34,374 nt of DNA from Patescibacteria group bacterium (GCA_021734135.1 JAIPJO010000003.1:1-34374), one strand, 5' to 3'; positions 2,561-31,714 are shown, counted from the first letter of the stretch. Made by a program: numbers and translations. The notes: a model not told the origin generated them from the letters alone.

Positions 2561-2956
2561 TTAGAAAAAATTAACTAAATAAAGACTCAAAAGACTAAAA
2601 AAAGCAATTATATTAACAGCTAAAGAGCTTATTGGTAGCAAATGACTTAAAAAGTGAAAATGTTTTTTTCTAAAAAAACTAATAGTAAGCAGAGTATTAA
2701 AAATAAAAACAGCTAAAGCAATAAATCCTAAAATAAAGATTTCATAAGGATGACCAACTTTATCAATACCAAAAACTACATTATAGTGTAAAACCATTAA
2801 ATCTGAACTAATATTTTTATATAAATACCAAGCAAAAACAAATATTAAAATTAAGAATAACAAATTAATTATAGTATAAATACGCAAATGTTTATCATTA
2901 AAAATTCTTTTAAAAAACCACAAATAACGTCTTAATGCGATCAATATTTTTTGCAT
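2561..2956 (-). CDS. Small three-TM membrane protein, possibly DUF1648-like
   Basis: Three hydrophobic segments and an LHYNVVFGIDKVG loop; TAA-T-ATG junction with mraY. Confidence 0.7.
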   Translation of the reverse strand: MQKILIALRRYLWFFKRIFNDKHLRIYTIINLLFLILIFVFAWYLYKNISSDLMVLHYNVVFGIDKVGHPYEIFILGFIALAVFIFNTLLTISFFRKKHFHFLSHLLPISSLAVNIIAFFSLLSLYLVNFF

Positions 2957-3008: not shown

Positions 3009-3032
3009 TATTTTTCCATAATGTAAAAATAA

Positions 3033-3041
3033 TGTTATAAT
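3033..3041 (+). promoter_or_regulatory. Extended -10 promoter giving a probable leaderless transcript
   Basis: TG-T-TATAAT, followed by 6 nt and then the ATG at 3048. Confidence 0.65.
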
Positions 3042-3047
3042 AATATT

Positions 3048-4139
3048 ATGAAATTAAACTTTATTAGCAAACTAATAAATTATGGGCTCTGGCAAGGTGC
3101 TAGTAGTCTTTATATTGAATTGAGCTCTGAAGGTTTAGAAGTAGATTATCATGAAGTTAACGCAGACGACCTACTACTTCCACAAAGGGCTAGCAATAAA
3201 TTCATAACTGAGTTAAACTCACTAACTAACGCTCAAAAATTAGAATCTGGCGCTAATATTTCTTTTAAATTACAAACACCAATTAATACTCGCAATGTTT
3301 ACTTAACTAGTGTTGCTGGTGAAAATCATAAATACCTATTGCAAGTAATTGAACCAGAAAGCACAGCCTGGAAACTATCAAATTTAGGTATGGATTCAAA
3401 TATTTTAAGAAATATTAAACAACACTTAAAGACAGAAAAAACTAAAGGTCTTATTACTATTTCCTCTAAAAATAAAGATGATAAAGAAAAAACTTTATCA
3501 GCTTTTATTCATGAATTAAATAAATTAAATATAGATATATTAAGTATAGGAAAACTTGATAAAAATATTATTTATCTTGATGAAAACCAAAATTGGTTAA
3601 AAAATATTGATGAACATGATTTAATTAGTCTTTTAAATAAACACAGTGAAAATGTTGTAATTACTAATAGTGAAAATGAAAATATCATTAAAGCCTTAAT
3701 AAAATATAGTTTAAATAGTGATAAACTAATAATTTTAAGCATAAATAGCGAAAGTTCACATGATGCTTACAGTAAATTACAAGAAAAAATTAATGATAAA
3801 GGATTAAGTAAGAATATAAATTTTATATTACACCAAGAGTCTTTTAAACATCTATGCCCTCATTGTTTAGATAAAGCTGAACATAGCTCTTATGAAAAAA
3901 AATCTTTAGATGATTTATCCTCTCATTATAATTTAGGAGATATAAAAAATAATTCTTATACTAGTAGTGGTTGTGATAAATGTAATTATAAATCATATAA
4001 TGGTAATGTTTTAGCCTTTGAAGTACTATCTTTTAAATACCCCCACCTTAACACAGCCTCAATAATAGATGATGCCTATAAAAAACAAAACTTAGGTATA
4101 ATCTCTGCTAATGATTTGCTAAGAATAAGTAATATATGA
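3048..4139 (+). CDS. Degenerate PilB/GspE-like secretion ATPase homologue (pseudo-ATPase) retaining the tetracysteine Zn motif
   Basis: Colinear with PilB by eye: GASSLYIE (cf. GASDIHIE), LSNLGM, GLITIS, LCPHC...GCDKCNYKSYNG..AFEVL, SIIDDAYKKQNLGIISANDLLRI. Walker A, Walker B and His boxes are eroded. Confidence 0.75.
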   Translation: MKLNFISKLINYGLWQGASSLYIELSSEGLEVDYHEVNADDLLLPQRASNKFITELNSLTNAQKLESGANISFKLQTPINTRNVYLTSVAGENHKYLLQVIEPESTAWKLSNLGMDSNILRNIKQHLKTEKTKGLITISSKNKDDKEKTLSAFIHELNKLNIDILSIGKLDKNIIYLDENQNWLKNIDEHDLISLLNKHSENVVITNSENENIIKALIKYSLNSDKLIILSINSESSHDAYSKLQEKINDKGLSKNINFILHQESFKHLCPHCLDKAEHSSYEKKSLDDLSSHYNLGDIKNNSYTSSGCDKCNYKSYNGNVLAFEVLSFKYPHLNTASIIDDAYKKQNLGIISANDLLRISNI

Positions 4140-4798
4140 AGATACTTTGTATAATTCCAGCCTACAATGAAGAAAAAAATATAAGTAAAACAGTATCATC
4201 TGCTAAAAAATATATTAGTGATGTTCTGGTTGTAAATGACGGCTCTAAAGATCAAACAAAAAAATTAGCCCAAGAAAATGGAGCTAAAGTAATTAGTCAT
4301 ATTATTAACCGTGGTCAAGGTGCAAGCCTTGAAACTGGTAATGAATATGCTAGAAGGCATGATTATGACGCAGTGGTTCACTTTGATGCTGATGGACAAT
4401 TTTTAGCTAAAGAAATACCTGATATTTTAAAACCAGTTATTGAAGAAGCTTACCCTCTTAGTTTTGGGTCTCGTTTTCTAAGTAAAAAATCTAATATGCC
4501 CTGGTTAAAAAAACATATAATCATGCCTCTAGCTAAAACAATTAATTATCTATTTTTAGGTATAAACACCAGCGACCCACAAAGTGGTTTTAGAGCTATG
4601 GATAAAGAAGCACTAGAAAAAATTAAAATTGAACACGATGGTATGGCTCATTGTAGCGAAATATTAGCTAAAACTCATAAATATAATTTAGTTTTTAAAG
4701 AAGTACCTATTACCGTAATATATAATGAATTTGGACAATCTCTAGGCTCAGGTTTTAAGACTATTAAAGACTTACTAATCAATAAAATAAATAAATAA
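4136..4798 (+). CDS. GT2 polyprenyl-phosphate glycosyltransferase (DPM1/GacI-like)
   Basis: IIPAYNEE, VNDGSKD, NRGQG, FDADGQ, GSRF and DPQSGFRA motifs; ATGA overlap with the upstream gene. Confidence 0.92.
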   Translation: MKILCIIPAYNEEKNISKTVSSAKKYISDVLVVNDGSKDQTKKLAQENGAKVISHIINRGQGASLETGNEYARRHDYDAVVHFDADGQFLAKEIPDILKPVIEEAYPLSFGSRFLSKKSNMPWLKKHIIMPLAKTINYLFLGINTSDPQSGFRAMDKEALEKIKIEHDGMAHCSEILAKTHKYNLVFKEVPITVIYNEFGQSLGSGFKTIKDLLINKINK

Positions 4799-4799
4799 T

Positions 4800-5141
4800 A
4801 TGTGGCAACAAACAATAGCTTTAATTTTAATTCTAATCTTCATTTTCAGATTAACACTGTTAAAAAAGAAAGGTAAAGTTCAAAATAATGAATATATTTT
4901 TTGGATGATATTCTGGTCCCTAGCTGCTTTAGCAATGTTATTTTTAAAACAATTAGATACCTTATTAATTGATCTTGGTTTTTCAGGTAGTGGTATTAAT
5001 TTTTTACTTTATTTAGCAATACTCTTTCTTTTCTATTTAATTTTTAGATTAAGATTAAAAATATTGAATCTAGACACAAAAATAACTAAATTATTACGAG
5101 AAATAGCCTTAAAAGATAGTGATAATAATACAGAAAAATAA
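4800..5141 (+). CDS. DUF2304-family small membrane protein (GacJ/Rv3632-like partner of the GT2)
   Basis: 113 aa, three TM segments, C-terminal KITKLLREIAL motif; immediately follows a DPM-like GT2. Confidence 0.8.
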   Translation: MWQQTIALILILIFIFRLTLLKKKGKVQNNEYIFWMIFWSLAALAMLFLKQLDTLLIDLGFSGSGINFLLYLAILFLFYLIFRLRLKILNLDTKITKLLREIALKDSDNNTEK

Positions 5142-5143
5142 AT

Positions 5144-6292
5144 ATGAAAATAGCTCAAATTGTCTGCTCCTTCCCTCCTTATAAAGGTGGAATAGGTAAT
5201 AGTGCTAAAGGTCTAGCAAAACTTCTCAGCCCAGAAATAGATATACATACTTTTACTACTGAGAAGCTTAAAGATGATAAAAAACATAATAAAAATAATT
5301 TACATAAAGACAAGTTTAAAGCTGAAAATACTAATGTCTTTTATTTAAAACCATTATTAAAGCTTGGCCAAGCTGCTATCTTACCAAGTCTTTTTTTTAA
5401 ATTAAAAAAATACGACGCTATTATTTTACACTACCCTTTTTTCGGTACTAATGAGATATTATATCTATATAGATTATTTAATAAAAAACAAAAACTTTAC
5501 ATCTATTATCACATGGATGTACAAGCTTTAAATCCTCTATATAAAATACTAAGCCTACCTGGACATATTTGTGGTAAAGCCCTAATAAAACAAGCTGATA
5601 AAGTTATTGTTTCTAGTCTTGATTATCTACAAAATTCACAAATTAAAAAATTATACCAAAAAGAAGTCCAAAAATATAAAGCCATTAGTTTTCATATAAA
5701 TGAAGATTATTATCACAAAGATTTCACAATAAAGGATAAAAATAATATACAACTTCTTTTTGTAGGAGGACTTGATAAAGCTCACTATTTCAAAGGTGTG
5801 GAAAATTTAATTAAAGCAACTGCTAAAATAAAACAAAAAAATTGGACTTTAAATATAGTTGGCAATGGTGAGCTATTAAATAAATACAAAAAGCTTGTTT
5901 TTAAACTTAATTTAAACAAAAATATTAATTTTTTAAATAATGTAGATGATAAAGAATTAAAAAAAATATATGAAAAAGCAGATATAATAATACTTCCCTC
6001 TTTTAATAAAAATGAAGCTTTTGGCCTTGTTTTAATTGAAGCCATGGCTAATTCTACAGCTGTAATTGCTAGCAACCTTAAAGGTGTTAGTCAGGTATTT
6101 AACGATGATTGTGGTTTAAAAGTTATTCCTGGTAGTATAATAGATTTAAAAAATAAAATAGAAAGTATAATCAATAAACCTACACTTATTCAAAACTTTA
6201 AAAAAGAAGCTTTCTATTTAGCTCAAGAAAAATATTTAGATAAACACATTAAAGAAAAATGGCTGAATATTTTAAAAACAGATGACAAATAA
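5144..6292 (+). CDS. GT4 glycosyltransferase
   Basis: PPYKGG at the N-terminus, LFVG...KG, LPS..EAFGLVLIEAMA. Confidence 0.93.
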   Translation: MKIAQIVCSFPPYKGGIGNSAKGLAKLLSPEIDIHTFTTEKLKDDKKHNKNNLHKDKFKAENTNVFYLKPLLKLGQAAILPSLFFKLKKYDAIILHYPFFGTNEILYLYRLFNKKQKLYIYYHMDVQALNPLYKILSLPGHICGKALIKQADKVIVSSLDYLQNSQIKKLYQKEVQKYKAISFHINEDYYHKDFTIKDKNNIQLLFVGGLDKAHYFKGVENLIKATAKIKQKNWTLNIVGNGELLNKYKKLVFKLNLNKNINFLNNVDDKELKKIYEKADIIILPSFNKNEAFGLVLIEAMANSTAVIASNLKGVSQVFNDDCGLKVIPGSIIDLKNKIESIINKPTLIQNFKKEAFYLAQEKYLDKHIKEKWLNILKTDDK

Positions 6293-6298
6293 TTATTT

Positions 6299-7483
6299 AT
6301 GAAAATAGCCTTAATTAACAATCTCTATCACAATCAAAAAAGAGGTGGAGCAGAAATAATTATAGAAAAATTAAAACACGCCCTTGAAGAAAAAGGACAT
6401 GATTGTTTTGTTATCTCCACTGCCCCCAAAAAGATTATAGAAAATAAAATAAATAATAATCAAAGAAAAAAAGAAGAAAAAGATATATCTAAAAATAATG
6501 ATTATTTGATAAATTCAATATACTATAATCTACATAAATTCCCTTATATAATCAGATTACTATGGCACTTATATAAACAAATAGAAAATAGGTCAGTTAA
6601 TAAAATAAAGAGTGTACTTAAACATGAAAAACCAGATTTAATTATTAGTCATAATCTTACAGGTTTTAGTATTAAAATATATAAACTTATTGAAGACTTA
6701 AATATTTCTCATATCCATTATTTACACGACATACAAATGCTTCATCCCTCAGGTAGGATGATATATGAAAAAGAAAATATAATTAATTCCTTTTTTGCAC
6801 GTCTTTATCAAAAAATACAAAAAAAATATAGTCAAAAAGTTGACTTAATTGTTTCTCCCTCCAAATGGTTATTAAAAATACATCAAGATAAAGGCTTTTT
6901 TAAAAATACAAAAGTTTGGCAAAAATTTAATCCTATTGAAAACATTAACATTAAAAATATAAATAAAAACTCTAAATCTAATTTCACTTTTATATACATC
7001 GGACAAATCGACAAAGATAAAGGAGTGGAGATTATGATAAAATCATTTCTTAAAACAGCAAATAATAGTGCCAAACTAAGAATAATTGGTGATGGAAAAG
7101 ATTTAAAAACTCTAAAACAAAAATATTATAAACATAAAAATATTATATTTTTAGGTAGACTCTCATATCAAGAGTCTATGCAAAAACTAGCAGAAGCTAA
7201 TACTTTAATTTTACCTTCTTTAATATATGAAAACTCACCTACCGCCCTCTTTGATGCTCTAAAGTTAAATATAGACATTATAGCTACAAATTTAGGTGGT
7301 AACACTGAAATAATTAAAAAATATTATGGACAATTAATTAAGCCTAATAATATCAATGCTTTAAGTAATGCCATCAGTAATTCTCTCAATAGTATTAATT
7401 CTCACAAAAAACCTGTAAATCTAAGTGATTTACAGGTTGATATTTATATACAAGAACTATTAAAGCAATTACATCTTTCTTAA
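6299..7483 (+). CDS. GT4 glycosyltransferase
   Basis: RGGAE, YIGQIDKDKG and LPSLIYENSP..LFDAL motifs. Confidence 0.88.
   Translation: MKIALINNLYHNQKRGGAEIIIEKLKHALEEKGHDCFVISTAPKKIIENKINNNQRKKEEKDISKNNDYLINSIYYNLHKFPYIIRLLWHLYKQIENRSVNKIKSVLKHEKPDLIISHNLTGFSIKIYKLIEDLNISHIHYLHDIQMLHPSGRMIYEKENIINSFFARLYQKIQKKYSQKVDLIVSPSKWLLKIHQDKGFFKNTKVWQKFNPIENINIKNINKNSKSNFTFIYIGQIDKDKGVEIMIKSFLKTANNSAKLRIIGDGKDLKTLKQKYYKHKNIIFLGRLSYQESMQKLAEANTLILPSLIYENSPTALFDALKLNIDIIATNLGGNTEIIKKYYGQLIKPNNINALSNAISNSLNSINSHKKPVNLSDLQVDIYIQELLKQLHLS
7406..7438 (-). terminator. Intrinsic terminator for the minus-strand epimerase operon, located inside the convergent GT4 ORF
   Basis: Perfect 12-bp stem AACCTGTAAATC-taagt-GATTTACAGGTT with an adjacent A-run (U-tract on minus), about 30 nt after the stop at 7469. 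Confidence 0.75.
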
Positions 7484-8485
7484 GCGTTTTCTGGTTCTTA
7501 AATCAAAAATTGTTTTCTTTAAGCCATTATCTAAAGTAGTAATAGGCATCCAACCAAGTTCATTTCTAGCTTTATGAATATCAGGAGTAAGTAGAGGTGT
7601 CATAAATAATTTACTTTTCTTATATACAATTTTAGAATCTGACTCAGTAGTTTCAATTATTTTTTTAGCCAAATCTGTAATATTAACGTCAACATCTGAA
7701 CCAATATTAAATGGACCAGCTAAATCTGATTCCATAAATTTCAAAGTTGCATCAATTATATCACTGACAAAACAAAGTGAAGAAGAAAAGTTCTCATCAC
7801 CATATATTTCAAGATCTTTACCTTCTAAAGCATTGGCTACCATATCTGGAATCATTTGTCCGTCACCTAAAGTCATACGAGGACCAAAAGTTCTAAAAAC
7901 TCTCATTATTTTAGCATCAATATGTTTCTGCTCTCTATAATTATGCACTAAAGTTTCTGCAAATCTTTTACCTTCGTCATAACAACTACGATCACTAGTT
8001 GTAGAAACTTGTCCCATATCTGTTTCTGTAACTTGATAATCTCTAAGCTCTTTACGTTTAAAACCATAAACAACAGAAGAAGAAAACTGCATAAACTTTG
8101 ACTCATATTTACTTGCTATATCTAATAAAACTTTCATTACCAATGAATTAGCATTGATAATATCTAATTTATTTTCAAGAAAATTATCAGGTGACATTGG
8201 ACAAGCCAAATTATATACCTCTTGAATACCCTGAAAACTAATCTTAAATCTTTTTAAAGTATTAATCTCTTCTAAATCAATAGGTTCAGAGAGGTCATGA
8301 TTAATAAACGTAAAATCTGGATTAGAAAGCAAATGATCAATATTTTTTTCTGAGCCAGTAGAAAAATTATCTATACAAATAACTTTAGCTTCTTTAATTA
8401 ATTCATCACATAAATGGGAGCCAATAAATCCTGCGCCACCTGCCACAATTACATTTTTTTTATCAAAGATTATTTTTTTGTCCAT
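7469..8485 (-). CDS. NAD-dependent epimerase/dehydratase, UDP-glucuronate decarboxylase (UXS)-like
   Basis: GGAGFIG, YNLACPMSP, RSCYDEGKR (YxxxK) and TFGPRM motifs. Confidence 0.88.
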   Translation of the reverse strand: MDKKIIFDKKNVIVAGGAGFIGSHLCDELIKEAKVICIDNFSTGSEKNIDHLLSNPDFTFINHDLSEPIDLEEINTLKRFKISFQGIQEVYNLACPMSPDNFLENKLDIINANSLVMKVLLDIASKYESKFMQFSSSVVYGFKRKELRDYQVTETDMGQVSTTSDRSCYDEGKRFAETLVHNYREQKHIDAKIMRVFRTFGPRMTLGDGQMIPDMVANALEGKDLEIYGDENFSSSLCFVSDIIDATLKFMESDLAGPFNIGSDVDVNITDLAKKIIETTESDSKIVYKKSKLFMTPLLTPDIHKARNELGWMPITTLDNGLKKTIFDLRTRKRLRKM

Positions 8486-16507: not shown

Positions 16508-16538
16508 TTACGTTGAAATAATATTACGTTGAAATAAT
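16508..16538. repeat. Tandem duplication (15 bp, period 16) covering the stop codon
   Basis: TTACGTTGAAATAAT at 16508-16522 and 16524-16538. Confidence 0.9.
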
Positions 16539-17855
16539 GTTAAGTATCTCCCTTTGCTTTTTTCGAATAACTTTTTTCAAGTCATCATGCCCTACTTGCT
16601 CAATCTGTTGAACAAGTTTTTCAATAGAATTAACAACTATAGTGATAAACTCATCATTTCTAGTTTTCTGCAAAATAAAAGAGACTCTATCAAAAAAAAT
16701 ATCCAAATTATTATTCCATATATCACCTTTTAATCTAGAAACTTCAATAATTTTTTTATCTTCAAATTTCTTTAAAGACAAATTTTTAAAGAATTCCTTA
16801 AACAAATTTTCACAATAGAAATAAGAATATCCTTTTATAAATTCATCTACATTACCTTCAGCGATTTTTCTTTTTCTCAATCCATCTTTTTCTTCTTTTT
16901 CTTTTCGCTCTTCTTCACTCTTATCTATTACTAAACTAACAAGAGATTCAACATCAAAACTATAATTAAAAAGAGTTAAAGGTGATTTAAAAAGCTTCTT
17001 GGCAAAATTAAACTGCTCTTTATACATCTCTTCTCTTTTTCCATTAGTTAATTCAGTTCTGTTTTTAAGTATTTTATTTCCAGCTGAATTAACAATACTA
17101 GCCAATTGATGAAACTTTTCTTTTACAAATTTTGTATTTCTTTCATCTTTGTACTTATCAGCAAAGATTTCAAGGAAAAATAAAACAATGTTAATTCTCA
17201 AATTGTGAGATAGAACAGACTCCACAAACTCTCCCCTTTCTTTATTAAACAAAGCTTTTTCAGTAATAGCTAATTTAAAATATCTTTTAAATATTTTTCG
17301 TGAATAAAACTTATTCAAAAGCAATGTTTCAAGCTTTTCTAGCTTGTTAGCGGTTAAGCTAACCTTAAGGTAAATAATCCAAGGTTTAGCATTCTTAGAT
17401 ATTTTTTCAACTGCTTTTAAATTAAATTTACTTAATTTAATTAAAAAAACAACTAGCACAAAAACAGCTAACAGCCAATAATTGTTTGTTAGCACCTGCC
17501 ACAATGCAGATAAAGCCCAGGTAATTTCTTGCCAAATATTTGCATACAAACTTGGCCAAATTGCATAAATGGTAAATCCAAGTGCAAACAATGACATCAA
17601 AGCATGGATTATAAAAACCATGTTTTCCAGCTTATTCTTTAATTTTTTATTCCTAATACTACTTATTGACCTAAAAATATTTGTTTTAAATATCAAAGCC
17701 AATAGAAAGGTAAGCCAAGAAAACCAAGGTGTAATAAATAGACACAATCCTACTACAATAAGAGGATTAAATAACAACAACAAATTAAAGACTTTAGTAA
17801 TCTTCTTCGATTTAACACTTCTGTTTCTTTTCATAACTACTCTGTTTCTTTTCAT
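16524..17855 (-). CDS. Hypothetical protein with N-terminal TM segments and a large charged helical C-terminal domain
   Basis: 443-aa ORF with its own promoter and terminator; no recognisable motif. Alternative start at 17834. Confidence 0.75.
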   Translation of the reverse strand: MKRNRVVMKRNRSVKSKKITKVFNLLLLFNPLIVVGLCLFITPWFSWLTFLLALIFKTNIFRSISSIRNKKLKNKLENMVFIIHALMSLFALGFTIYAIWPSLYANIWQEITWALSALWQVLTNNYWLLAVFVLVVFLIKLSKFNLKAVEKISKNAKPWIIYLKVSLTANKLEKLETLLLNKFYSRKIFKRYFKLAITEKALFNKERGEFVESVLSHNLRINIVLFFLEIFADKYKDERNTKFVKEKFHQLASIVNSAGNKILKNRTELTNGKREEMYKEQFNFAKKLFKSPLTLFNYSFDVESLVSLVIDKSEEERKEKEEKDGLRKRKIAEGNVDEFIKGYSYFYCENLFKEFFKNLSLKKFEDKKIIEVSRLKGDIWNNNLDIFFDRVSFILQKTRNDEFITIVVNSIEKLVQQIEQVGHDDLKKVIRKKQREILNIIST

Positions 17856-18066: not shown

Positions 18067-18603
18067 CTATTTCTTTTCTAGTAAATAAGGTCTTAGACGT
18101 CTAGTTGTGAAATTTATAATATAAAATAAGACTATAATAATTATACTATGTAATATTAACTTATACCCTAATGACTCCCAAAACCAAGCTTGTGTTAAAA
18201 AAAGACTATTTGAACTTTGATAAATATTAATAATAAAATTAATAATTTGATATGAAAAATTAAAAGTAACAGTTGCAAAGGCAGTAATGACAATAAAGGA
18301 GTAGATTGAACGATTAGTAAAAAAACTAAGCTGTAAATATCTAGAACTCATTACTGCAACAAGAAAACTAATAATAAATATAGGGAAAATATCAAAAAAA
18401 TAAATATCAAATATAAAACCAATTAAAAAAGCAAAGTAGATATGATAATTTTTTCTTCCTAAAATAATTATTAATATAAGTAATATTAAAGGTAAATTAA
18501 TTAAATTAAAAACTGTATGCAAAGAAGATATATAGGTAAATTGAAAAATAATTAAAAAATAGCTTAAAATTATTTGCAAACTTAGATGTAAATATTTAGT
18601 CAT
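18067..18603 (-). CDS. mreD: Rod shape-determining protein MreD (divergent)
   Basis: 178-aa polytopic membrane protein with GFIFDI, directly after mreC. Confidence 0.75.
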   Translation of the reverse strand: MTKYLHLSLQIILSYFLIIFQFTYISSLHTVFNLINLPLILLILIIILGRKNYHIYFAFLIGFIFDIYFFDIFPIFIISFLVAVMSSRYLQLSFFTNRSIYSFIVITAFATVTFNFSYQIINFIINIYQSSNSLFLTQAWFWESLGYKLILHSIIIIVLFYIINFTTRRLRPYLLEKK

Positions 18604-29275: not shown

Positions 29276-30439
29276 TTAATAAAAATTATTTACAGTCATC
29301 ATTTTTACAATTGCGTGTTTATATCTATTTTTAAAAGCTTGATTTAATGATCTTTTTTTATATTTAATTTCAACACCAATTAAACCTTCATTATTTTCTA
29401 AAACCAAATCAATCTCTGACCCCTGTTTACTGCGCCAATAATAACACTTATAATTTTCATCAGAATAACTTAATTGTTTTACAATTTCTGAGATAATAAA
29501 ATTCTCAAAAAGCGCACCCTTGTCTTCACGTAAAGAAAGATTAGAAAAGTTTTCTAAAAGTGCATTTCTTATACCATTATCATAAAAATAAATTTTAGCA
29601 GACTTAGAAATTTCATTTCTTTTATTTTTAGAATATGGATAAAGTCTAAATAAAATATAACTTTGTTCAAATATCTCTATATACCTTCTAATTGTTCTAA
29701 TATCCGCTCCTAGACGAGAAGATAATTCAGAATAATTAATTAAATTTCCAATTTGAGCAGCTAGGACTTTTAATAAATCAGTAGCTAATTTTTTATCTTC
29801 AATTAATTTTAATTCCAATATATCTTTAAAAATGAGGCTATCTACAAAATTTAGTAAATATTTTTTATCATTAGGATTATTAACATTTTGTGGATATTGT
29901 CCATATATTAAAATACTTTCTAATATACTTTCCATATCAAAAAGATAGTTTTTATCTTTCAACTCTTCTTTTAGGGTAACATTTTCTAAAATATTAAAAT
30001 TAAGATCTTGTTCAATATCTTTTTGCACTAAATATTCAGAAAAAGTAAGTGGATGTAGCTTGTAATCTATTTTCCTGCCAGCCAAACTTTCTGAGGTTTT
30101 ATTTTTGATATGAAAAGAAGATGACCCAGTAATTACTAAATCTACATTACTTAATTGATCATATATTATTTTAGCCGCTCTACCAGGATTCGATAATAAA
30201 TGAATTTCATCAATTATTAGCATTTTAGCGTCAGGGCTTATTAAATTCTTATATGATTCTATATCATAAGTTTCTAAAATCTTTCTAACAGGTTCATTAT
30301 CAACTAATAAATAAGTAGCTTTAGGAAATATTTTTTTCACAATAGTTGTTTTACCAACCTGCCTAGAACCAAGTAAAATAAGAATTTGTTTATACTTGGA
30401 AAAGTGTGTTTTTATTTTTTCATCTAAATGTCTATGCAT
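29276..30439 (-). CDS. AAA_14 ATPase with DUF4143 / PD-(D/E)XK-like C-terminus
   Basis: GSRQVGKT, IIDEIH, TGSS, ESLAGR, GALFEN, EIDL...EIK. Start moved from 30463 to 30439 (MHRHL) to match the paralogue N-terminus and the local start context. Confidence 0.9.
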   Translation of the reverse strand: MHRHLDEKIKTHFSKYKQILILLGSRQVGKTTIVKKIFPKATYLLVDNEPVRKILETYDIESYKNLISPDAKMLIIDEIHLLSNPGRAAKIIYDQLSNVDLVITGSSSFHIKNKTSESLAGRKIDYKLHPLTFSEYLVQKDIEQDLNFNILENVTLKEELKDKNYLFDMESILESILIYGQYPQNVNNPNDKKYLLNFVDSLIFKDILELKLIEDKKLATDLLKVLAAQIGNLINYSELSSRLGADIRTIRRYIEIFEQSYILFRLYPYSKNKRNEISKSAKIYFYDNGIRNALLENFSNLSLREDKGALFENFIISEIVKQLSYSDENYKCYYWRSKQGSEIDLVLENNEGLIGVEIKYKKRSLNQAFKNRYKHAIVKMMTVNNFY

Positions 30440-30487
30440 AAAAATATATAACTTTTTTAACATCTAATGTATAAATAGATATAACTA

Positions 30488-30516
30488 ATTATACATCCTA
30501 ATTAAAAAATAGTCAA
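30488..30516 (-). promoter_or_regulatory. sigma70 promoter
   Basis: TTGACT-17-TATAAT. Confidence 0.75.
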
Positions 30517-30544
30517 CATTAACCTTAAATATACTAATATACAA

Positions 30545-31714
30545 CTAAAATAATTGTAAATTTTTAATTTTAGCCAAATCTTTCCAATTTAAAACTTTAA
30601 CTCCTTTTCTACTTATATTCATATCACCTGCATAAAACAAAAATTCACTTTGTTTTTTGTTATCCTGCAATTCTCTCCAAGAAACTAAGTTTTTAAACAA
30701 TTCACTTCTAATAGTGCTACCTGCTTTAATTTCTATTGCTGTTACATCTTGACCATTATCAATTATTAAATCTACTTTATTAGCGTTACTATCTTGCCAA
30801 AAATAAAAATTAGCTAAATTACCTCTATTATAATCATATTTTATAATATCGCTGACAATAAAATTCTCAAAAATATTACCCTTTAGATAATGGTTAGTTA
30901 ACTCATCTTCTTTTCTTATACCCAAAAGATAAGATAATAATCCAGTGTCATAAAAAAATATTTTAGGACTCTTAATTATTCTCTTATTAAAATTCTTGTA
31001 ATATGGTTGCAATTTAAAGATTATATAACTTGTTTCCAAAATACTAATCCAATTTTCAGCAGTATGATATGAAATTCCACTATCTTCAGCTATAGTTTTA
31101 ATATTTAAAACTTGACCACATCTACCAGCTATTAACTTTAAAAACCTTAAAAATGAACTATAACTTGATATATTCTTTATCATCCTAATATCTCTTTCTA
31201 TATAAGTATTTACATATGACTTATAGAAACTACTAGGACGAATACTTTGATCAAATATTCTAGGATAAAAACCTGTAAAAATAGCTTTATTTAAATTAGA
31301 TATATTTTCTTTAGGTAGCTCTTCCATACTTAAAGGTAGTAAAGTTACAATACCAGTTCTACCTGCTAAAGACTGAGAAATACTTTCCATTAACAAATAA
31401 TTATGAGATCCAGTCAATATAAAAGAACCATTCTTTTTAATATTATCAACATGTGTTTGTAAATAAGAAAAAAACTCAGGTACTCGTTGCACCTCATCTA
31501 TTATAACATTCTTATCATACTCCTTTAAAAAACCTCGTGGGTCATCTTTTACCAATTCTCTAATATCTGGATCTTCAAAAGAAACATATTTATAAGTCTT
31601 AAAGATATCTTGAACTAAGGTGGTTTTACCTGACTGCCTTGGACCTAAAATAGTCACAATTGGAAACTCTTTTTTTAATTGTAGTATTTCTTTAGTTATT
31701 TTTCTTGAAATCAT
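30545..31714 (-). CDS. AAA_14 ATPase with DUF4143 / PD-(D/E)XK-like C-terminus
   Basis: GPRQSGKT, IIDEVQ, LTGS, SLAGR, KSPKIFFYDTG, GNIFEN, KVDL...IEIK. Confidence 0.92.
   Translation of the reverse strand: MISRKITKEILQLKKEFPIVTILGPRQSGKTTLVQDIFKTYKYVSFEDPDIRELVKDDPRGFLKEYDKNVIIDEVQRVPEFFSYLQTHVDNIKKNGSFILTGSHNYLLMESISQSLAGRTGIVTLLPLSMEELPKENISNLNKAIFTGFYPRIFDQSIRPSSFYKSYVNTYIERDIRMIKNISSYSSFLRFLKLIAGRCGQVLNIKTIAEDSGISYHTAENWISILETSYIIFKLQPYYKNFNKRIIKSPKIFFYDTGLLSYLLGIRKEDELTNHYLKGNIFENFIVSDIIKYDYNRGNLANFYFWQDSNANKVDLIIDNGQDVTAIEIKAGSTIRSELFKNLVSWRELQDNKKQSEFLFYAGDMNISRKGVKVLNWKDLAKIKNLQLF

Follow-up and report, generated by a model that had tools for sequence, protein, structure and literature searches.

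A motif-less PilB/GspE-like protein under purifying selection precedes a predicted lipid-linked glycosylation module in one order of Patescibacteria

What can a protein of the PilB/GspE family contribute to a cell once its catalytic motifs have been lost, and why should its gene stand at the head of a glycosyltransferase operon? These questions are raised by a degenerate PilB/GspE-like protein of 363 aa encoded in a Patescibacteria group bacterium (GCA_021734135.1, JAIPJO010000003.1:1-34374; this whole stretch of 34,374 nt is referred to below as the window), the genome of which has 730 kb at 87% completeness. To our knowledge, the members of the PilB/GspE family have been treated as obligate motors. 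The analysis presented here established that a selected, motif-less PilB paralog with a new and conserved genomic association is real. For its role, the reading that we favor, with a probability of roughly 0.4, is that of a non-catalytic and dispensable accessory of the glycosylation module, descended from a PilB/GspE paralog and inherited vertically in its place before the genes for a family 2 glycosyltransferase (GT2) and a DUF2304 small membrane protein.

The relationship to PilB/GspE, which had been proposed in an initial annotation made from the sequence alone, was borne out by profile, sequence and structure comparisons. The protein matched the Pfam T2SSE profile (PF00437) with 38.5 bits (E 7.2e-10; gathering cut-off 24.9 bits), with residues 6-330 aligned to profile positions 12-323 of 370, and a phmmer search of Protein Data Bank (PDB) chains found Vibrio cholerae EpsE (1p9r, E 8.3e-11, residues 5-327). 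The NCBIfam GspE and PilB models were also matched, far under their equivalog cut-offs, and a search of the ESM Atlas returned generic T2SSE clusters only. Twelve close homologs, 58-81% identical and all of 363 aa, were available for structure prediction; AlphaFold2 produced a poor model from these alone (predicted local distance difference test, pLDDT, of 60), and a 148-row alignment dominated by canonical PilBs gave a pLDDT of 92.6 and a predicted TM score of 0.76. With the latter model, the best Foldseek match in the PDB was again EpsE (1p9w, E 1.8e-23, TM 0.58), followed by PilB (5tsh and 5zfr), PilF (5oiu) and GspE (4pht) at E 1e-21 to 1e-23, with PilT and DotB lower. The predicted PilB/GspE fold is a sound assignment, though the model owes much to canonical relatives. 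The protein begins at the N2D lobe (profile position 12), with neither an N1D/GSPII domain nor an N-terminal extension; for comparison of length, the canonical PilB of the same genome (contig 49) has about 586 aa.

Motif positions were derived from the EpsE alignment and from hmmalign to a separately built T2SSE profile (Table 1), and residue by residue they confirmed the erosion of each catalytic motif that the initial annotation had described. In addition to the replacements listed in the table, the Asp box TIEDPIE aligns to SIGKLD. The Walker A region is variable among the 12 close homologs, with K146 kept in 6/12. All four cysteines of the putative Zn site (C270/C273 at nt 3855-3866 and C309/C312 at nt 3972-3983, correctly located at the outset) are invariant in 12/12. 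From these replacements we infer that the protein probably no longer binds or hydrolyzes ATP. The open reading frame (ORF) is intact and runs from 3048 to 4139(+), the start first reported, 3033, lying 15 nt upstream of the ATG.

The gene is not a pseudogene: it is under purifying selection rather than in neutral decay. Nei-Gojobori (NG86) ratios of nonsynonymous to synonymous substitution rates (dN/dS) were 0.126-0.145 in three within-genus pairs (dS 0.87-1.08) and 0.057-0.190 in 10 of 14 pairs from sister genera, the other four being dS-saturated. The ratios of DUF2304 and of TM131, a divergently transcribed 131-aa membrane protein gene, are similar to these, and GT2 gave 0.026-0.143 in pairs with computable dS. 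Within the close family, conservation is lowest in the equivalents of the P-loop and the Asp box (0.68 and 0.65, respectively, vs. 0.81 overall), and residues 4-18 at the N-terminus and 213-230 hardly vary. The former ATP site is thus conserved less well than any other part, and selection therefore acts on the fold and other surfaces and not on the nucleotide pocket. Between genera, identity to the window's copy falls to 17-23%, compared with 49-63% for GT2.

The genomic association was followed through the window's family (f1; 101 genomes in 16 genera). In the window, the stop codon of the PilB-like gene overlaps the GT2 start by 4 nt (ATGA), and DUF2304 and two family 4 glycosyltransferase genes (GT4a and GT4b) come next, just as initially annotated; all remaining Pfam-assignable ORFs of the window are on the minus strand, so that among the assignable genes this is its only plus-strand operon. 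Short-frame orthologs are present in at least 59 of the 101 f1 genomes, including one locus found separately (G836). These presence counts are lower bounds from 150 listed matches, with 341 further matches not listed; by genus, they come to at least 3/3 genomes in g1 (the window's genus), 14/16 in g321, 21/22 in g322, 2/2 in g637, 9/11 in g639, 1/1 in g641, 4/8 in g642, 1/1 in g644, 2/3 in g647 and 2/2 in g648. Among the matches listed, none fell in g645 (0/21), g640 (0/6), g638 (0/2), g643 (0/1), g646 (0/1) or g649 (0/1). At each of the 50 f1 loci that were mapped, the PilB-like gene lies between a divergent TM131-MraY(-FtsW) unit and a co-directional GT2-DUF2304-GT4a(-GT4b) unit, and TM131 keeps its position in f1 with or without the PilB-like gene. 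Across 49 loci, the spacing from the PilB-like stop to the start of GT2 is -4 nt in 27 and does not exceed 8 nt in 45. In all 49 complete ortholog-GT2 pairs the frame is open, with lengths of about 329-393 aa.

Position was a better guide to orthology than profile searches. A profile of the close family, applied to 400 further genomes of the class, found no match at E <= 1e-22, and at E <= 1e-3 it missed true syntenic orthologs in four sister-genus genomes. Walking outward from DUF2304 in sister genera led to an ORF of 333-369 aa in the same place, 18-20% identical and scoring 80-98 bits with T2SSE. A profile of diverse short forms failed to separate them from canonical PilBs, its best 150 matches being nearly all frames of about 570 aa.

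The association extends to the sister family f148, where an ortholog of 416-438 aa occurs in 11/11 genomes. The f148 cluster is uninverted and co-directional, reading S8 peptidase, epimerase, PilB-like, GT2, DUF2304, GT4a, GT4b, TM131 and MraY, with the epimerase gene directly upstream of the PilB-like gene and the PilB-like gene directly before GT2 in 8 of 11 genomes. The other three belong to genus g326, in which GT2 lies outside the 1.5-kb flank of the PilB-like gene; extending two of these loci revealed one gene for a repeat-rich surface protein of 1152-1155 aa between the two, within the same co-directional cluster. The linkage to GT2-DUF2304, the conservation of which the initial annotation had asked to be tested, holds in 50/50 f1 loci and in f148 directly in 8 of 11 loci and, in the two extended loci, across one inserted gene. 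The secreted protein inserted in g326 raises the possibility that the cluster has a part in glycosylating surface proteins. The two surface proteins themselves (L230:6580-10047(-) and L231:3793-7251(-)) carry an N-terminal hydrophobic leader and D-x-D/N-G-D FG-GAP-like repeats. The PilB-like-GT2 adjacency has outlasted the inversion that distinguishes f1 from f148. In that inversion, the f1 block PilB-like-GT2-DUF2304-GT4a-GT4b is reversed relative to S8-epimerase and TM131-MraY (compared with f148 loci L177/L179 and f147 locus L040), and the same inversion is seen in f1 genera without the PilB-like gene.

Across the order, the catalytic elements have been lost to different degrees. A motif table was drawn up for 56 orthologs, comprising the 50 f1 loci, the window protein, P0012, P0014 and P0015 from a library of 1.84 billion proteins, and two f148 genomes. 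No ortholog keeps the full catalytic set, and the second His of the His box is absent in all those tabulated. The Walker B Glu is missing in most and survives in part of g322, in g637, in g642 and in part of f148. The Walker A GK[ST] has been retained by most of g322 and by g639, g641, g647 and f148-g324; in g321, g637, g642, g644 and f148-g326 it has given way to GR[ST] or to L, S or A. In the clade of g1, g648 and library proteins P0014 and P0015, the P-loop glycine and the Walker B Asp are gone too. Loss of the tetracysteine is seen only in genus g322 and in G885, both of which have deleted the entire region. The combination of an intact Zn site with full ATPase erosion, which the initial annotation had put forward, describes the window's genus and not the orthologous group as a whole.

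In phylogenetic trees (quick IQ-TREE searches with several long branches), the short forms grouped with those of f148 and f147 and with a few longer degenerate proteins from the library in one clade (SH-aLRT support 100%), which lies within the Patescibacteria PilBs. All short library forms cluster with f1 orthologs, and three are identical to f1 orthologs. A clade of g1, g644 and g648 was recovered both in the PilB-like tree and in a quick tree of three linked neighboring genes, and the PilB-like gene was probably inherited vertically in the order. In the same neighboring-gene tree, genera without the PilB-like gene are nested among genera with it, which suggests a minimum of four state changes, one gain and at least two to three losses. 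A wider set of degenerate PilB-like library proteins, P0081 (572 aa), P0027 (528 aa), P0051 (596 aa), P0077 and P0096, also clusters with the short family. Like the short family, these lack the second His-box His and variably miss Walker residues; unlike it, some are full length (528-596 aa) with an N-terminal extension. Genome relatives of P0081 were sought in 301 sampled genomes, but the nearest matches proved to be canonical PilBs, with all motifs present in 20/20 checked. The genomes sampled in this search and in that with the profile of diverse short forms included one unpublished genome (G154), on which none of the conclusions depends.

Outside the order, DUF2304 occurs in 134 of 401 genomes of the phylum (136 matches), and about 5 kb was taken around each of 80 of these matches (29 from the same class, 51 from the same phylum). 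A degenerate PilB-like ORF was present in 0/80 of these loci. Two T2SSE ORFs near DUF2304 in family f7 (L059 and L071) were rejected as canonical PilT-like genes, unrelated and 1.5-2.4 kb downstream. By phmmer with the window's GT2, a GT2 adjoins DUF2304 in 60 of 85 loci. As judged from these genome comparisons, the association of the PilB-like gene with GT2-DUF2304 is specific to one order and old within it.

The reading that we favor would connect these observations as follows. A PilB copy may have lost its N1D docking domain and become a dead paralog, and its gene may have settled directly upstream of the GT2 and DUF2304 pair before the two families of the order split. The product would act as a cytoplasmic scaffold or regulator of the envelope-glycosylation module, stabilized by the Zn domain where that domain is kept, and translational coupling would have it made in fixed proportion to GT2; it would tune, not enable, lipid-linked sugar synthesis. 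Because the operon persists without the gene, any role must be dispensable, and since four genera and 80/80 loci outside the order have an operon that functions in its absence, the protein is an accessory and not a core part of an undescribed system. A bolder version holds that the motor fold has been exapted, with the PilB-derived pseudo-ATPase a dedicated, translationally coupled subunit of a polyprenyl-phosphate-sugar synthase complex (GT2/DUF2304) and a Zn-stabilized cytoplasmic platform that organizes or gates the glycosylation of the envelope or of surface proteins; the genera would then mark successive steps by which a switch that binds ATP turned into a scaffold free of nucleotide. We regard this version as tentative and, taken whole, rather unlikely.

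Several observations weigh against an accessory role. No direct evidence of physical or functional interaction with GT2 or DUF2304 was obtained; a complex prediction of GT2 with the PilB-like protein scored 0.00 (mark 0.32), which counts neither for nor against. In one genome each of g640, g646, g645 and g638, TM131 and GT2 are separated by a gap of 54-114 bp with no PilB-like gene, genome G414 of the same order likewise has the operon without it, and so do the 80 DUF2304 loci outside the order. In family f147, genome G693 carries a related PilB-like form of 383 aa beside TM131-MraY with no GT2 downstream; a second f147 genome and the single f149 genome have no such form. The fast divergence between genera (17-23% identity) could mean a weakly constrained protein, and a confident model required the alignment dominated by canonical PilBs, the family-only alignment reaching pLDDT 60. 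Gene order is also generally conserved in these small genomes (MraY, FtsW, S8, epimerase and MreB are all syntenic), and conserved position alone is therefore weak evidence of common function.

Four other explanations were weighed. The initial annotation had proposed that the pseudo-ATPase links pilus assembly to pilin or surface glycosylation, for example in a mixed hexamer with active PilB; in this model it would join or cap the PilB ring or attach to the platform of the pilus. Both lobes of the PilB ring, N2D and CTD, are kept, as is the assembly-ATPase Zn domain in most genera, and the genome's canonical PilB and a tandem double PilB (described below) are possible partners; moreover, EpsE Zn-site mutants are dominant negative according to the abstract of PMC5061722, suggesting that defective subunits can poison or join wild-type rings. 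However, N1D, which passages of a review (PMC11656802) give as the likely stator-docking domain of the assembly ATPase, is missing, and genus g322 has deleted the Zn region. A Pfam scan revealed no pilus genes in the 34-kb window, and no pilus platform, alignment or pilin genes lie beside the PilB-like gene in the 50 f1 and 11 f148 loci. The presence of the gene does not track that of PilB either, canonical PilB and the double PilB both occurring in genera with and without it. Neither a connection with pilus assembly nor a mixed hexamer is backed by any evidence found here, and we consider this explanation improbable. We think it just as improbable that the protein is a nucleotide-binding, non-hydrolyzing switch or sensor that gates the operon enzymes by ATP level, with the window's genus as an end stage in which binding has been lost. 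Many orthologs do retain GK[ST] together with the Walker B Asp, but not the Glu and His-box residues required for hydrolysis, for example g639 (xDNQGKTTT with DSEIIxIDD) and f148-g324 (GPFNSGKTTT), and P0012, the most distant close-family member, reads EGKTST. Yet g1, g648, g321, g637 and g642 are without the Lys and/or the P-loop Gly and have similar dN/dS; since the gene is kept under similar selection after these residues are lost, the conserved function cannot depend on nucleotide binding.

It is less probable again that the protein has no function of its own, being a decaying relic or a leader-like cistron that drives translation of the overlapping GT2. The extreme divergence between genera relative to GT2, the clean loss in at least four genera, the deletion of whole motifs and of the Zn region and the 4-nt overlap with GT2 in 27/49 loci would all fit this explanation. 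Nevertheless, dN/dS of 0.06-0.19 resembles that of the neighboring DUF2304 and TM131, the frame is open at about 329-393 aa in all 49 aligned pairs, the genus-level family retains strongly conserved blocks (the N-terminus and residues 213-230), and a leader of 1.1 kb would be costly in genomes of 0.7-1 Mb. Least probable of all, in our judgment, is that the protein belongs to a pared-down pathway for exporting or assembling the cluster's surface proteins, namely the S8 peptidase with FG-GAP repeats and the 1152-1155-aa repeat protein of g326. The f148 gene order (S8, epimerase, PilB-like, surface protein where present, GT2) and the derivation of the fold from a secretion-motor family speak for such a route, but no PilC/GspF-like membrane platform is encoded nearby, and with its motor residues lost the protein cannot power export. 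The surface proteins moreover bear ordinary N-terminal hydrophobic leaders, and no special export route is therefore needed.

The features of the operon and its flanks are collected in Table 1. A promoter-like site falls in the 91-bp spacer common to the PilB-like gene and the divergent TM131; such sites are no commoner in the window than in shuffled sequence (42 found vs. 44 expected), and this one is therefore weak evidence. TM131 is a multi-pass protein without a Pfam match, kept immediately upstream of mraY in f1, f147 and f148. At the 3' end of GT4b (window 7410-7438), a hairpin with a perfect 12-bp stem (AACCTGTAAATC ... GATTTACAGGTT) lies near the 15-nt overlap of the convergent GT4b (ending at 7483) and epimerase (ending at 7469) genes and may terminate transcription in both directions. 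The window yielded no GT-C transferase.

Table 1. Coordinates of the PilB-like gene, its motif equivalents and the adjoining features (positions counted from the first nucleotide of the window).
Feature	Position	Strand	Basis
Degenerate PilB/GspE-like protein, 363 aa, N2D and CTD without N1D	3048..4139	+	T2SSE and EpsE matches, model, dN/dS
Walker A equivalent S140-T149 (SKNKDDKEKT) vs. GPTGSGK[ST]TT; both P-loop Gly and the Ser/Thr replaced	3465..3494	+	Alignments
Walker B equivalent S200-N210 (SENVV-ITNSEN) vs. DPDxxxxGEIRD; Asp to Ser, catalytic Glu to Asn207	3645..3677	+	hmmalign
His-box equivalent S224-S234 (SDKLIILSINS) vs. TGHxVxSTxHx; both His replaced (K226, N233)	3717..3749	+	Alignments
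Putative tetracysteine Zn motif C270-x2-C273 ... C309-x2-C312 (CPHC-x35-CDKC)	3855..3983	+	Aligned to EpsE cysteines
GT2, GacI/PpgS-like polyprenyl-phosphate-HexNAc synthase group	4136..4798	+	Pfam Glycos_transf_2, 83.9 bits
DUF2304 small membrane protein, GacJ/Rv3632-type	4800..5141	+	Pfam, 62.5 bits
GT4a glycosyltransferase	5144..6292	+	Glycos_transf_1, 118.5 bits
GT4b glycosyltransferase; 3' end overlaps convergent epimerase gene	6299..7483	+	Glycos_transf_1, 83.8 bits
NAD-dependent sugar epimerase/dehydratase, convergent	7469..8485	-	Pfam Epimerase, 136 bits
TM131, 131-aa membrane protein, divergent; first gene of TM131-MraY-FtsW-MurG unit	2561..2956	-	No Pfam match
Promoter-like site TTTCCA, 17-nt spacer, TG-TATAAT	3013..3041	+	Consensus scan, 10/12 matches

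Elsewhere in the window, two adjoining AAA_14/DUF4143 ATPase genes (29279-31714(-)) occupy the part of lowest GC content (0.21-0.25 vs. about 0.30), a stretch that may be an acquired island. Two ORFs of 443 aa and 178 aa (16527-17855(-) and 18070-18603(-)) had no Pfam match at E <= 1e-4 and sit between sugar-nucleotide genes (RmlB-like, RmlC-like, PfkB) and mreC. The stretch, or part of it, is present in 2 of 3 listed DNA sequencing runs, all from one lake-water study, one of which is a possible source; no RNA sequencing run was listed as containing it.

The significance of the family lies in its graded decay series, which amounts to a natural experiment on ATP-free uses of the secretion ATPase fold, and in its fixed place before a GacI/GacJ-type module, which makes it a testable candidate accessory factor of lipid-linked glycosylation in bacteria of the candidate phyla radiation (CPR). 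Little is known of the envelopes of these organisms. The significance is limited by the confinement of the gene to a single uncultured order, by its dispensability and by the lack of a demonstrated partner.

Among known systems, the closest in structure are the PilB, GspE (EpsE) and PilF ATPases (1P9R/1P9W, 5TSH, 5OIU, 4PHT), with which the PilB-like protein shares the bilobed N2D and CTD fold; the CxxC...CxxC zinc motif is common to it and to the assembly, not the retraction, ATPases. It differs in that the window protein is without N1D, the Walker A Gly and Ser/Thr, the Asp box, the Walker B Asp and Glu and both His-box His. Unlike a canonical PilB gene, the PilB-like gene is not encoded with pilM/N/O/C or pilins, and its product evolves several times faster than canonical PilB copies. 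No description of a degenerate PilB/GspE form or a pseudo-ATPase PilB was found in the titles, abstracts and passages of the literature surveyed, nor was one of a fused double PilB. A fusion of this kind is encoded in the genome of the window (contig C3, about 16.5-19.5 kb; L004/L005) as a 1012-aa tandem protein with the order N1D-N2D-CTD-N2D-CTD, both halves of which are fully canonical and contain GPTGSGKT, GEIRD, TGH..TLH and four Cys apiece; frames with two T2SSE domains, 1004-1043 aa long, are found repeatedly in f1, f147, f148 and the library (P0016, P0020, P0021 and others).

A looser analogy for a non-hydrolyzing P-loop protein working beside a PilB-family motor is offered by ArlH/FlaH, the RecA/KaiC-like protein of the archaellum that binds ATP and partners the PilB-family ATPase ArlI. 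ArlH/FlaH differs in belonging to another fold family, in keeping Walker A and in being encoded in the motor's own operon; for the PilB-like protein, no evidence of contact with a motor was found in this analysis.

For the operon itself, the nearest counterparts are the polyprenyl-phosphate-HexNAc (N-acetylhexosamine) synthase pairs GacI/GacJ of Streptococcus pyogenes and PpgS/Rv3632 of Mycobacterium tuberculosis, which have the same GT2 and DUF2304 architecture and adjacency as the window's pair. GacJ stimulates GacI and Rv3632 stimulates PpgS, as stated in passages of 10.1101/180810 in agreement with the background given in the initial annotation; these passages mention no PilB-like partner for either pair. 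The window's GT2 matched the NCBIfam PpgS model with 137 bits, below the equivalog cut-off of 370, and together with DUF2304 it is predicted to form a polyprenyl-phosphate-sugar synthase module of the GacI/GacJ type.

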